IMG/VR virus record: IMGVR_UViG_3300021963_000022 | DNA: 64,000 nt | From: a virus | Taxonomy: Duplodnaviria; Caudoviricetes | Strand: one strand, 5' to 3' | Shown here: piece by piece, positions 32,941 through 36,221 of the stretch | Layout: each line of letters starts with the position of its first letter | Numbering within the stretch: position 1 is the stretch's first letter | The notes under the pieces: model-generated | The model's database searches: none | Told to the model about the DNA's origin: nothing | The model's input: only the letters and a program-made list of their open reading frames with translations | Position numbers and translations under genes: made by a program

Positions 32941-33129
32941 TTATGATTTTGTATCTATGTTTTGACCTTTACTATGAGTAGGTTCTATTTCACCTACTAT
33001 ATTGTACAGATATTGTACAACTTCAATAATTTGTTTATTAGTTACAGGATCATTTATATCTTTATATACAGTAAGTCTCTGTTGGTTATTAACCATGTCC
33101 CAAGCTGTAGATATACTTTGTACTATCAT
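32941..33129 (-). CDS. small hypothetical protein
   Basis: 62 aa ORF between tRNAs. Confidence 0.5.
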   Translation of the reverse strand: MIVQSISTAWDMVNNQQRLTVYKDINDPVTNKQIIEVVQYLYNIVGEIEPTHSKGQNIDTKS

Positions 33130-33147
33130 ACAACTATTTATATAATT

Positions 33148-33225
33148 TGGAGCATCGGGTCAGATTTGAACTGACGATTTTACGGATTTGCAATCCGTTG
33201 CATTTGACCACTCTGCCACCGATGC
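33148..33225 (-). tRNA. tRNA-Cys(GCA)
   Basis: Loop TT-GCA-AA, U73, CCA. Confidence 0.93.
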
Positions 33226-33230
33226 ATATT

Positions 33231-33428
33231 GCTCTGCATCCCCCGGCGGTAATTATAGAGTATCAAGATATGACGCTATCATACCCATCACACACTCCTT
33301 CCACCCGCTTCCCGACAGGGACCGTTCTCGCACTGCCAGCGGCCTTTCGGTTTAAAGACTACCACCCGTAGTTGTCACACTACTTCTCATCGTGTGGGTC
33401 ACACTATCCGGAGACACCCGGAACGTTC
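33231..33428 (-). ncRNA. candidate structured RNA between tRNA-Ser(GCT) and tRNA-Cys
   Basis: GC-rich; at least six helices visible, including a long-range one. Confidence 0.65.
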
Positions 33429-33516
33429 TGGTGGAGAGTGTGGGATTCGAACCCACGCACCCATTTCTGGATGACAGATTAGCAATCTGCTGGTTTAACC
33501 ACTCACCCAACTCTCC
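33429..33516 (-). tRNA. tRNA-Ser(GCT)
   Basis: Long variable arm, loop TT-GCT-AA, CCA. Confidence 0.95.
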
Positions 33517-33523
33517 TAATACT

Positions 33524-33600
33524 TGGCGCACCGTAGGGGACTCGAACCCCTGACCCCCGCCGTGACAGGGCGGTGCGCTAACCAACTGCGCTAACGGTGC
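33524..33600 (-). tRNA. tRNA-Asp(GTC)
   Basis: Loop CT-GTC-AC, G73, CCA. Confidence 0.95.
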
Positions 33601-33673
33601 ATAAGTAGAATAGGACACCCCTTTGGCCTAGGTCGATTAAGAGTACGCCTGCCCAGCGACTCTCCTATATTCT

Positions 33674-33758
33674 TGGTGGAGATTACTGGGATCGAACCAG
33701 TCGTGCCATAAGGCGGCGGATTTACAGTCCACTGCATCACCATTGATGCTTCATCTCC
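33674..33758 (-). tRNA. tRNA-Tyr(GTA)
   Basis: Long variable arm, loop CT-GTA-AA, CCA. Confidence 0.95.
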
Positions 33759-33889
33759 AAGATGAGTTACGGTTGCAAGACCTAGTGTCTCATTACTGAG
33801 AGAAGTGTCAGGGCGATGTAACTCAAAAATTAGTATAACATAGATGTGTATAATATTAGGGTTGTTGTATACATCTATGTTATGTATTA

Positions 33890-34078
33890 GTATAAGCTAC
33901 TGGTTTCCATGCCAGCCCTTAATTGAGCGGTTACTCTGTCCATCTCTTTTATTCTAACGTCTGTGTGCAGAGAGATACTGCCTATCAGATTCAGAGTAAT
34001 TAACTCGCTAACGGTCTTCTGCCACCGGATCTCTATCATTAATCAAACGCTATTTTAACGAAAATAGTAACGGGATTC
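33890..34078 (-). ncRNA. candidate structured RNA downstream of tRNA-Glu
   Basis: Multiple helices (TTACTCTG/CAGAGTAA, CTATTTT/AAAATAG, ATCTCT/AGAGAT); no ORF in track. Confidence 0.55.
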
Positions 34079-34080
34079 TT

Positions 34081-34155
34081 TGGAAGAGCATAGGAGAATC
34101 GAACTCCTCTTCTTAGGATGAAAACCTAATGTCCTAACCGATAGACGAATGCTCC
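34081..34155 (-). tRNA. tRNA-Glu(TTC)
   Basis: Loop TT-TTC-AT, CCA. Confidence 0.93.
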
Positions 34156-34157
34156 AT

Positions 34158-34283
34158 GTTATTAGTTTTGCTGACGCACTATTTGCTATGCTCAACGGAA
34201 TTGCCAGCTGGACGTACCGTTTATATACATAGTTACTTAGAGTTGACGTTTACTCAATGGCTTACATCAGCAAAACTAATAAC
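34158..34283 (-). ncRNA. candidate RNA closed by a perfect 17-bp stem
   Basis: GTTATTAGTTTTGCTGA (34158-34174) / TCAGCAAAACTAATAAC (34267-34283). Confidence 0.55.
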
Positions 34284-34294
34284 ACACTATATGA

Positions 34295-34535
34295 AAACAC
34301 ACTATGGGAACTATTAAACAAATAATCAGTACCGTCTACTGATGCAATGTCATTCGTCATTACTGCCTAACTGCCCGTCACGTTAAACAATATTGCTATT
34401 GTCGGTACGCTTCTTGTACTCTATGCGAAGCCAGTCCGTCAACTGGTTATGCTTCCATAGAGTACCTAACGGATCAGGTAACCCTTAATATGTTTACATA
34501 TAGTCCCTGTAACTTAAACAGGGCTATATGAAAAA
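34295..34535 (-). ncRNA. candidate multi-hairpin RNA at the start of a promoter-driven unit
   Basis: 10-bp GTACTCTATG/CATAGAGTAC helix, ACAATA-GCAA-TATTGT GNRA hairpin, 5' 13-bp hairpin. Confidence 0.55.
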
Positions 34536-34738
34536 TTAAATTTTAAAGAACTTTGTTGATTAGTGCGATGACTTTTTCAACTCATGCTATGATTGTATCA
34601 TAACTACCATTTATTGTCAAATTCTTTTTTGTGTCTCTGTTTCCAAGAACTTGTTCAATCAATCTATACATAGAGTATAGCAGATTGAGGATTTATTGTC
34701 AAATTTACGATTTTAGTACTTAATACTACATAAAATAC

Positions 34739-35356
34739 TTGATGATAAATATTCTTATGGAACAACCTACCTTATATGATGAACTAAAATTACCCAAAAA
34801 TTGTACGTCTGAAGAAATCAAACAAAAATACAAAATTTTAGCACAATTACATCATCCTGATAAAGGAGGAGATGTGGAAAAGTTCAAACAAATTAAATTC
34901 GCATATGAAGTGTTGAGTGATCCAATTAAACGTAAACACTATGATTCAACCGGCGATCATTACAATAATATTAACATCGACAGTGAAGTTATGGGCAGAT
35001 TATCTGTTATGGTTTCACATTTTATTCAACATATTAATCCAGAGTTTGATGATTTAATATTAAAAATGAAAATTGAGATCCGTGCATTACATCAACTGAC
35101 AACAGATGCTATTGTAGAATGTAATGAATTAATCGCCAAATATAATATTATTTCTAACAAGATTAGATTAAAAAAAGAAGGCGAGAACTTACTAAAGTTG
35201 GTTGTTGATAAACAAGTATTAGGACTTCATAATGAAGTAATTAACCACAAAAGAGGTTTAATAGTTTTTTCTAGAATGTTAGAAGTATTAGACGATTACC
35301 ACTACAGTAGTGATGAATGGCGATTACTACTAGAAAATGTTGATGGTCCGGCGTAG
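34739..35356 (+). CDS. DnaJ-domain protein
   Basis: J-domain with HPD (LHHPDKGGD..FKQIKFAYEVLSDP); antisense to the tRNA array; ATAAATA upstream. Confidence 0.88.
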   Translation: MMINILMEQPTLYDELKLPKNCTSEEIKQKYKILAQLHHPDKGGDVEKFKQIKFAYEVLSDPIKRKHYDSTGDHYNNINIDSEVMGRLSVMVSHFIQHINPEFDDLILKMKIEIRALHQLTTDAIVECNELIAKYNIISNKIRLKKEGENLLKLVVDKQVLGLHNEVINHKRGLIVFSRMLEVLDDYHYSSDEWRLLLENVDGPA

Positions 35357-35418
35357 AGGAATCGAACCTCTATTGATAGCTTAGAAGGCTACTGTATGAT
35401 CCATTATACTAACGCCAG
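35344..35418 (-). tRNA. tRNA-Arg(TCT)
   Basis: Loop CT-TCT-AA, CCA; 3' end overlaps the DnaJ stop on the opposite strand. Confidence 0.92.
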
Positions 35419-35428
35419 AGTATTTGAT

Positions 35429-35504
35429 TGGCTCCCCTACGTGGGCTCGAACCACGGACATTTTGATTAACAGTCAAACGCTCTACCGACTGAGCTATAG
35501 GAGA
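35429..35504 (-). tRNA. tRNA-Asn(GTT)
   Basis: Loop CT-GTT-AA, G73, CCA. Confidence 0.95.
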
Positions 35505-35511
35505 ATAATTT

Positions 35512-35586
35512 TGGTGCCGACTATCGGATTCGAACTGATGACCTATCGCTTACAAGGCGATTGCACTACCACTGTGCTAAGTCGGC
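35512..35586 (-). tRNA. tRNA-Thr(TGT)
   Basis: Loop CT-TGT-AA, CCA. Confidence 0.95.
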
Positions 35587-35633
35587 ATATTTTATTTAAG
35601 CGTATTGTATCATAGGAAAACTTTTATGTCAAC

Positions 35634-36221
35634 CTAATTCTGCCAAATCCTAGAATGTTTGGGTACTCCTGCTAACAAATATTCCATTTGGTCAGCAAGT
35701 ATTGTTCTATGTTGTAATATCATATTTTCATAATGTGAAGGTACGTACGGAGAATAAAGCAATTCCATACGTACTTCTTTTAAACTTTTATGACCTTTTT
35801 TGCTGTTACAATCTTTACAAGCAGTAACAACATTCATCCAAGTGTTTTCACCACCTTTGCTTTTTGGAACAATATGGTCTCTACTTAACATATGATAGTT
35901 AGGAAAGTGTTCACCGCAGTATGCACATACATGACGGTCACGACCGAACAATGTTTTATTGCTTAATGCTACACATGCATGTTTGTATGGATTAAATCCG
36001 TGACCTTTGATAGCGATGATACTAGATGCTTCTAAGTAGCTTAATGTACCGTCGTTTTGTATACCACCGCGATATTTAGCCACAATATTACCCATTGACC
36101 ATGCTATGGCATCTTTTGCTTTATAGGTAATTGCGTCATCATTTGATATCCATTGCCGGGGAACTCCCGAGATATCTAGTGCTAGAACAGCCATGTAGTA
36201 CTCCTTTTCTGTTATTATCAC
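35634..36221 (-). CDS. HNH endonuclease
   Basis: RDRHVCAYCG, DHIVPKSKGG, NVVTACKDCNSKK; true start probably 36194 (MAVLALD). Confidence 0.9.
   Translation of the reverse strand: MIITEKEYYMAVLALDISGVPRQWISNDDAITYKAKDAIAWSMGNIVAKYRGGIQNDGTLSYLEASSIIAIKGHGFNPYKHACVALSNKTLFGRDRHVCAYCGEHFPNYHMLSRDHIVPKSKGGENTWMNVVTACKDCNSKKGHKSLKEVRMELLYSPYVPSHYENMILQHRTILADQMEYLLAGVPKHSRIWQN

Follow-up and report, generated by a model that had tools for sequence, protein, structure and literature searches.

The window, i.e., the complete stretch of 64,000 nt analyzed here, carries all RNA features described below on its minus strand. They are preceded by two promoters of the sigma-70 type. P1 (34702–34674, TTGACA-17-TGnTATACT) agrees with the consensus at 11 of 12 positions, has an extended −10 TG and is kept in the related loci L001–L003, while P2 (34620–34592, TTGACA-17-TGATACAAT with TACAAT as −10 box; 11/12 matches, extended −10 TG) is located 82 nt downstream of P1 and is kept in seven loci. 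A 15-nt direct repeat surrounds the −35 boxes of both, and the low coordinates of these boxes (34697 and 34615) are those given in the original prediction, which had proposed tandem consensus promoters firing into an ORF-free region. The latter was also found: ORFs of at least 60 aa are absent between 33760 and 34720, and from 34585 to a tRNA-like gene at 33758 the largest ORF has 53 aa and the sole gene detected is a tRNA-Glu(UUC) (34155–34081). No terminator-like sites were detected in the region 33000–36000. The 430-nt transcript from 34585 to 34156 has a predicted folding energy of −135.4 kcal/mol compared to −95.0 ± 4.9 kcal/mol in dinucleotide shuffles (z = −8.2). A strong and early expression of this RNA, as proposed before, may be assumed on the basis of promoter quality only. 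On the other side of the promoters and divergent from them, a gene for a DnaJ (J-domain) protein is located on the plus strand (34757–35356); this protein has 72–89% identity across three IMG/VR contigs, one of which is 349 kb long.

Two structured RNAs, designated D1 (34503–34287, approx. 217 nt) and D2 (34285–34156, approx. 130 nt), lie between the promoters and the tRNA-Glu gene, and D1, D2 and tRNA-Glu abut with gaps of 0–1 nt. Related loci were collected from IMG/VR by exact-word scans and by searching for the neighboring DnaJ protein, which yielded six syntenic loci. tRNA genes are densely arrayed in the related loci, 2017 of them in 138 loci. Downstream of tRNA-Glu in the window, a gene similar to tRNA-Tyr(GUA), whose variable arm is long (33758–33677, minus strand), was missed by ARAGORN and scores 36 bits with the Rfam tRNA model. 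The 322-nt spacer between the two tRNAs (34080–33759, minus strand) folds better than its shuffles (z = −3.1), holds a 19-nt inverted repeat at 33835–33883, and is probably another spacer RNA.

D1 corresponds to the stretch that had been flagged originally as a multi-hairpin RNA. Its true limits are defined by a closing stem of 22 bp, S1 (34503–34482 with 34308–34287), which had been overlooked in the original prediction. Within S1, a bulged helix S2 is formed by CCUGAUCCGUU (34478–34468) and GACGG-GCA-GUUAGG (34379–34366); hairpin A (34466–34415) has the loop UGACGG and hairpin B (34410–34380) a GNRA loop. An invariant strand follows, GUUAGGCAGUAAUGAC (34371–34356; GUAGGCAGUAAUGA across the family), and then hairpin S5 (34343–34325), with the loop GACGG (AGACGGU in the description of the family), before the segment GUUCC (34313–34306) leads back into S1. 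Most structural elements named before were recovered. The 5′ hairpin at 34530–34497 is present as written, as are the perfect 10-bp helix (34425–34416 with 34465–34456) enclosing GAAG/CUUC and CCAGU/ACUGG, and the hairpin ACAAUA-GCAA-UAUUGU. A proposed pairing of GUACCG with CGGUAC had to be dropped: both strings occur, but L001 and L003 lack ACCG through a deletion, and CGGUAC is instead part of a separately covarying hairpin, AUCAGUA-GACGG-UACUGAU.

To collect the D1 family, IMG/VR viral contigs were searched with the pattern TAGGNAGTAATGA-N12-42-AGACGGT, which matched 73 stretches. Chance pattern matches (L054, L088, L112, L136, L139, L151 and probably L119) were excluded, and the long variants L134, L135 and L154 as well as L108 were left out of the statistics, giving 42 distinct full-length members, whose closing stems span 19–29 bp and differ greatly in sequence. 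The members were aligned using MAFFT and the structure was derived with RNAalifold; this alignment is not structure-aware and the inner hairpins are only partly resolved in it. Among the 42 members, 91.1% of the pair cells are paired; the corresponding values are 73.0% for shuffles, with a maximum of 74.7%, and no more than 42% for slid partners. Both-side changes occur in 38 of 55 pairs and in 428 cells (shuffle maxima 37 pairs and 187 cells); these shuffle statistics, as those for D2 below, are inflated by the many close relatives in both families. As both families were collected by exact-match patterns, the columns fixed by the D1 pattern, GUAGGNAGUAAUGA and AGACGGU, carry no independent weight. 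The pair cells contain 202 G-U but only 52 A-C combinations. S2 has the general form CCU-NNN-CCGUU with GACGG-bulge-NNN-AGG and covaries between GAU/GUU and ACA/UGU, and, as taken by motif extraction, between CCGUU/GACGG, CCGCU/GGCGG and UCGCU/GGCGA. Hairpin B is capped by GCAA in the window, by GAAA in L001 and L003, and by a GNRA loop in most other relatives (judged by eye, uncounted). Because of the strong covariation and the excess of G-U over A-C, D1 is not an unstructured throw-away leader, which had been named as the outcome that would disprove a structured RNA directly behind the two promoters. Judged from this covariation, uncultured giant lake phages encode a conserved non-coding RNA with an intricate fold in the flagged stretch. 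The long variants (L134, L135, L154) have an extra 3′ segment (containing GUAAGCCCCUAGUAGG and, further on, GGGAGUUCC) ahead of the closing strand.

D2 is closed by P1 (34285–34267 with 34174–34156), which is perfectly paired over at least 18 bp (34284–34267 with 34174–34157). It contains, in order, GUAAGCC (34266–34259), the P2 hairpin (34257–34237), GUAACU (34236–34231), P3, P4 formed by AACGG/CCGUU with an 18-nt loop (34221–34194), and AGCAAAUAGUGC (34187–34176). A search of IMG/VR with the pattern AAACGGTA-N6-24-ATTCCGTTGAG matched 96 stretches, from which 63 distinct full-length sequences were aligned after removal of two chance matches. According to RNAalifold and pair counts, 95% of the cells are paired in these 63 sequences, both-side changes occur in 26 of 38 pairs, and the covariation score is 0.373, a value that none of 500 shuffles attains (0.143); with slid partners it is 0.074 at most. 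P4 is fixed by the search pattern and has no weight as evidence. In some members P1 is replaced wholesale, e.g., by GGGGG...GUUGGUG with CACUAAC...CCCCC, and the P2 hairpin is optional, but GUAAGCC, UGAGUAACU and AGCAAAUAGUGC are near-invariant. The covariance model scores 149.5 bits on the minus strand and 22.6 bits on the plus strand. This difference, together with the frequent U-G pairs, shows that the molecule under selection is the RNA of the tRNA strand.

The apical loop of D2 contains the palindrome CCAGCUGG (34211–34204), for which a symmetric kissing-loop contact is proposed. In the family, the 18-nt P4 loop has a perfect palindrome of 6–10 nt in 19 of 19 loop variants, although its sequence changes: eleven different palindromes were found (GUGGCCAC, CCAGCUGG, CUAGCUAG, GCUGCAGC, CCGGCCGG, GCGGCCGC, CUUGCAAG, UUGCAA, AUUUGCAAAU, AUUUCGAAAU and GGUGGCCACC). 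Palindromes of at least 8 nt are present in 17 of the 19 variants compared to 5.5% of shuffles of the same loops, and in 2 of 54 chance matches of the D2 pattern in prokaryote genomes. The innermost pairs of the palindrome (alignment columns 89–94, 90–93 and 91–92) are never broken, with GC 32, UA 16 and AU 15 at columns 90–93 and GC 62 and CG 1 at columns 91–92, and the two innermost of them are unable to form within one chain. In cryo-EM structures, the loops L9.3 of OLE and L21a of GOLLD, which show palindromic covariation, form symmetric intermolecular kissing loops (Kretsch et al., bioRxiv 10.1101/2024.12.08.627333). By the same argument, since pairs impossible within one chain are kept, we infer that D2 is a symmetric homodimer held together by a loop-loop duplex of 6–10 bp. 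In principle, the palindrome could be a site acting at the DNA level instead. As a separate observation, a 524-kb contig (IMGVR_UViG_3300027749_002876) carries two near-identical D1-D2 units (L027:1459–1860, plus strand; L071, minus strand), one with the palindrome GUGGCCAC and the other with CCAGCUGG. This difference fits two homodimers that would be kept apart by their loops (orthogonal homodimers), but the contig could also be a chimera of two phages.

In the alignments of the six syntenic loci with the window, D1 and D2 are near-invariant and the adjoining tRNA-Glu is strongly different, with three versions. The borders of the modules look like recombination points. The few changes are compensatory (ACAAUA-GCAA-UAUUGU to UAAC-GAAA-GUUA, GAG/CUC to GGG/CCC), and the eight-base palindrome CCAGCUGG is changed to GUGGCCAC or AUUUGCAAAU. 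L004 keeps the long stem, but a 30-nt hairpin replaces the D1 core; the same replacement is found in L005, which in addition is without D2. Based on these two loci, D1 and D2 are modules, and neither RNA is essential for the operon. As near-identical phages differ by such gains and losses of modules, natural knock-outs are available. Further, only 19 of 75 D1-pattern matches are followed by D2, and a search of 59 other loci with the D2 model added only one extra D2. Therefore, the idea that the flagged RNA is one domain of a larger RNA could not be upheld in this form: D1 and D2 are separate families which occur apart, sharing a primary transcript at this locus rather than one fold. In one D1 subfamily, a TTGACA-17-TATAAT promoter is placed for a start at the first bases of S1, and a further promoter is located directly after D1, so D1 can be a free-standing gene. 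In L155 (plus strand), the D1 copy has a promoter of its own, and its downstream neighbor is neither a tRNA nor D2 but AAGGAG-N7-ATG with an ORF.

The tRNA context of D2 is close throughout the family. A tRNA lies at most 150 nt downstream of D2 in 85 of 99 cases, a position beside phage tRNA islands as known for GOLLD and ROOL. In 58 of 75 distinct contexts, the tRNA starts 30–41 nt past the D2 core, i.e., within a few nucleotides of the end of P1; in the window, tRNA-Glu starts one base past this end. On the upstream side, a tRNA ends 55–58 nt before the core in 23 of 75 contexts, and P1 in the window starts 62 nt before it. As the tRNA end is nearer to the core than the start of P1, the outer P1 pairs appear to use the 3′ end of the upstream tRNA itself in these 23 contexts.

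The leader between P2 and D1 resembles that of ribosomal RNA operons. A predicted hairpin, GUUGA...UCAAC (34581–34555), occupies the position of the rrn boxB; in relatives, GUUGA-GAAA-UCAAC or CUAGUUA-GGAAA-UUAACUAG is found in the same place. It is followed by a boxA-like element, GUUCUUUAAAAU (34551–34540), 41 nt past the −10 box of P2, which agrees with E. coli boxA at 9 of 11 core positions. In the window and 1.42 Mb of related loci, the motif G[CT]TCTTT[AG]A[AC]AA was counted 101 times, each time on the tRNA strand; the opposite strand had none. A promoter-like site is present at most 90 nt upstream in 45 of the 101 copies, the commonest distance from −10 box to motif being 26–27 nt, and several relatives have a small hairpin in between. 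The second copy in the window (31167–31156) is located behind another promoter; the whole unit, TTGACA...TATACT and an exact boxA-like GTTCTTTAAAAA (31200–31156, minus strand), ends 9 nt upstream of a tRNA-Leu(UAG). The tRNA array seems to have several promoter-plus-boxA entry points. The plan is that of E. coli rrnH, in which P1, P2, a hairpin and TGCTCTTTAACAA follow each other, the latter approx. 40 nt past P2, and in rrn leaders in general boxB, boxA and boxC are placed just past P2, before long leader-trailer helices bracketing the rRNAs (PMC10250234). A boxC was not identified at the locus. Because of this resemblance in layout and boxA, the leader may be an rrn-type antitermination signal, to which Nus factors would bind and which would shield the long untranslated operon from Rho.

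Between the boxA-like element and D1, the 3′ arm CUAUAUG of the 5′ hairpin is also the start of S1, and the two pairings are mutually exclusive. An 11-nt direct repeat (34534–34524 and 34297–34287) flanks the 5′ hairpin together with D1. In relatives, the upstream copy of the S1 3′ strand varies in step with S1 (CAUAUAG, ACAUAUGA, CAUAA, CAUGUAG). This covariation of the duplicated segment points to a conserved strand exchange during transcription and not to a target-site duplication. In other D1 subfamilies (L101, L106, L109, L113 and similar ones), the leader hairpin is small and GNRA-capped (AACCYGCAAGGGUU), and it too shares bases with the beginning of the closing stem; the design of alternative pairing upstream of D1 recurs there with unrelated sequences.

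Databases were searched for known RNA families at the locus. The Rfam 15 models matched only tRNAs in the window, in the region and in 12 related loci. The original prediction had suggested a covariance-model search including GOLLD; this was conducted, and neither GOLLD nor ROOL (RF01998, RF03087) matched at the gathering threshold in the whole window, at E ≤ 10 in 33500–34800 or at E ≤ 0.05 in the 12 related loci. D1 and D2 had no blastn match (E ≤ 0.05) in 50,697 GenBank phage records, and the window resembles known GenBank phages through its tRNAs only. The D2 core pattern was found 54 times in 185,579 prokaryote genomes, which is about the chance expectation by our own estimate, and none of these matches fits the D2 model. 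Within the collections searched, D1 and D2 are confined to uncultured phage contigs. We consider them likely new families among the ornate RNAs of phage tRNA islands. One or the other may be listed, though undescribed, among the 8,495 unnamed IMG/VR candidate RNAs (PMC10690425).

Taken together, we propose, with a probability of about 70%, that the locus is the promoter-proximal part of an rrn-like untranslated phage tRNA operon, which carries two independent, uncatalogued structured RNA genes, is protected by antitermination, and yields both RNAs as stable passengers cut out of the transcript, D2 being a homodimer. In detail, host RNA polymerase would start at P1 and P2, and Nus factors would load on the boxA-like element and protect the long untranslated transcript from Rho in the manner of rrn operons. 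The 5′ hairpin would hold the first strand of S1 until the far strand has been made and then release it by strand exchange. The modules would be cut apart by RNase P, which makes the 3′ end of D2 when it processes the 5′ end of tRNA-Glu, and by RNase III or RNase E, which would cut at or next to the long closing stems. This would yield stable, compactly folded RNAs, D1 probably being locked by a GNRA tetraloop contact and D2 being symmetrically dimerized through its loop; during infection, both would work in trans as particles that bind protein or RNA. As to their role, our leading guess is that they influence host translation or tRNA metabolism, or a defense system. A bolder version, which we regard as rather unlikely, is that the palindromic loop lets D2 build a symmetric RNA-only particle in infected cells, either by itself or while it is still connected to D1 and tRNA-Glu in the precursor. 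Such a particle would resemble the OLE, ROOL and GOLLD assemblies on a miniature scale, would be encoded in a tRNA operon, and would serve to bind or present phage tRNAs or factors of host translation.

Several other explanations were considered. D1 and D2 could be nothing but cis-acting processing scaffolds, which order the cleavages by RNase P, RNase III and RNase E, protect the CCA ends of tRNAs and are then degraded without any function in trans. Both modules are indeed flush against tRNAs, the closing stem of D2 begins approx. 5 nt inside the 3′ end of the upstream tRNA in 23 of 75 contexts (57 instead of 62 nt to the core), and long closing stems of this kind resemble the leader-trailer helices of rRNA (PMC10250234). 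However, a mere stalk needs no invariant strand, no GNRA hairpins, no conserved GACGG loops and no palindromic loop kept through eleven variants. Further, several D1 copies are located between two promoters with no adjoining tRNA, and the same tRNA-Glu is made in close relatives from which the D1 core is missing, alone or together with D2. We therefore consider a purely scaffolding role unlikely, though better placed than the explanations that follow.

Even less probable is that D1 or D2 is a self-cleaving ribozyme cutting the tRNA precursor at the module borders. Small ribozymes are known from phage regions, and such an activity would suit the complex folds, the high conservation of their junction nucleotides and their exact placement at borders that need cuts; nevertheless, no Rfam ribozyme model matched, and RNase P already accounts for the 3′ end of D2.

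It is very improbable, in our view, that the modules are miniature mobile DNA elements with terminal inverted repeats and a target-site duplication, inserted into tRNA arrays and forming RNA folds only incidentally. Their presence varies among close relatives, the inverted repeats at their ends are long, the 11-nt direct repeat flanks the 5′ hairpin and D1, homing endonucleases are abundant in the arrays, and D2 is nearly invariant beside a strongly different tRNA-Glu. However, inverted repeats in DNA would show neither the preference for G-U over A-C nor the constant location on the tRNA strand, and the internal hairpins covary, including the class of the GNRA loop. In addition, no empty site was found, since relatives without the D1 core keep both the stem and the direct repeat; the presumed duplication covaries with the stem as its alternative pairing partner; and D1 and D2 are each present in a single copy in the window. 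Finally, a riboswitch or attenuator controlling read-through into the tRNAs would suit a promoter-proximal, conserved and complex fold with mutually exclusive pairings at the 5′ hairpin, but is hardly credible here, as there is no expression platform (no terminator-like site in 33000–36000), another RNA module follows directly, members of the family sit between tRNAs or between promoters, and the alternative pairing gives way to the longer closing stem.

The reading as an rrn-like tRNA operon with two passenger RNAs can be compared with several known systems. As in bacterial rrn operons, tandem strong promoters, a hairpin and a boxA-like element approx. 40 nt past P2 are followed by long helices which bracket structured RNAs, with tRNAs in between; unlike in rrn operons, the bracketed RNAs at this locus are small and non-ribosomal, and the boxA-like element differs from that of E. 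coli at 2 of 11 core positions. Such a leader suggests how giant phages may escape Rho while they transcribe untranslated tRNA arrays that are kilobases long. Concerning the loop-loop contact, loop-mediated oligomerization in which pairing is kept while the sequence changes is also known for the HIV-1 DIS and the phi29 pRNA. As in D2, an apical loop carries a self-complementary (DIS) or complementary (pRNA) sequence there, but sequences, folds and biology are unrelated, the loop of D2 having 18 nt and its palindrome 6–10 nt.

The closest systems in layout are RNAC and RNAD of phage T4, small stable RNAs with no known role (PMC3014915, PMC9697503), which are non-tRNA RNA genes located in a phage tRNA cluster on the tRNA strand. 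This layout is shared by D1 and D2, which are likewise flush with a tRNA on the same strand. The T4 genes follow a tRNA (tRNA-Arg) head to tail after 1–6 nt and are located beside SegB, a GIY-YIG homing endonuclease. Homology of D1 or D2 to RNAC and RNAD was searched in the T4 tRNA region with nhmmer and blastn, and nothing significant was found; the best bits of the D2 covariance model in this region fall on the wrong strand. The RNAs also differ in structure: RNAC (compared as L156:1409–1547, minus strand) includes a T arm like that of tRNAs, CCGGGUUCGAAUCCCGG, and D1 and D2 are instead closed by long stems. A hairpin of RNAC, AUUGAGUAGCGUCAACUACUUAAUAAC (AUUGAGUA.CGUCAACU), resembles the P2 region of D2, AUUGAGUAAACGUCAACUCUAAGUAAC, by eye, but this candidate was rejected as not statistically significant.

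In behavior, D1 and D2 are closest to GOLLD, ROOL and OLE, which are ornate RNAs of phages, often found near tRNA islands and forming oligomers through kissing loops. The palindromic signature of OLE L9.3 and GOLLD L21a, i.e., covariation that keeps the palindrome including its adjacent central nucleotides, was found in the D2 loop in an even stronger form. D1 and D2 are far smaller than ROOL (approx. 580 nt) and GOLLD (approx. 800 nt), and the one self-complementary loop of D2 predicts a dimer and not a cage, in contrast to GOLLD and ROOL. RNAC and RNAD of T4, GOLLD and ROOL are long-known, unexplained stable RNAs of phage tRNA islands, and the locus described here would add two more families to them, both compact, widespread and rich in covariation. 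With D2, this group would gain an RNA of only about 130 nt with an unusually clear signature of symmetric RNA-RNA pairing, whose predicted dimerization is testable.
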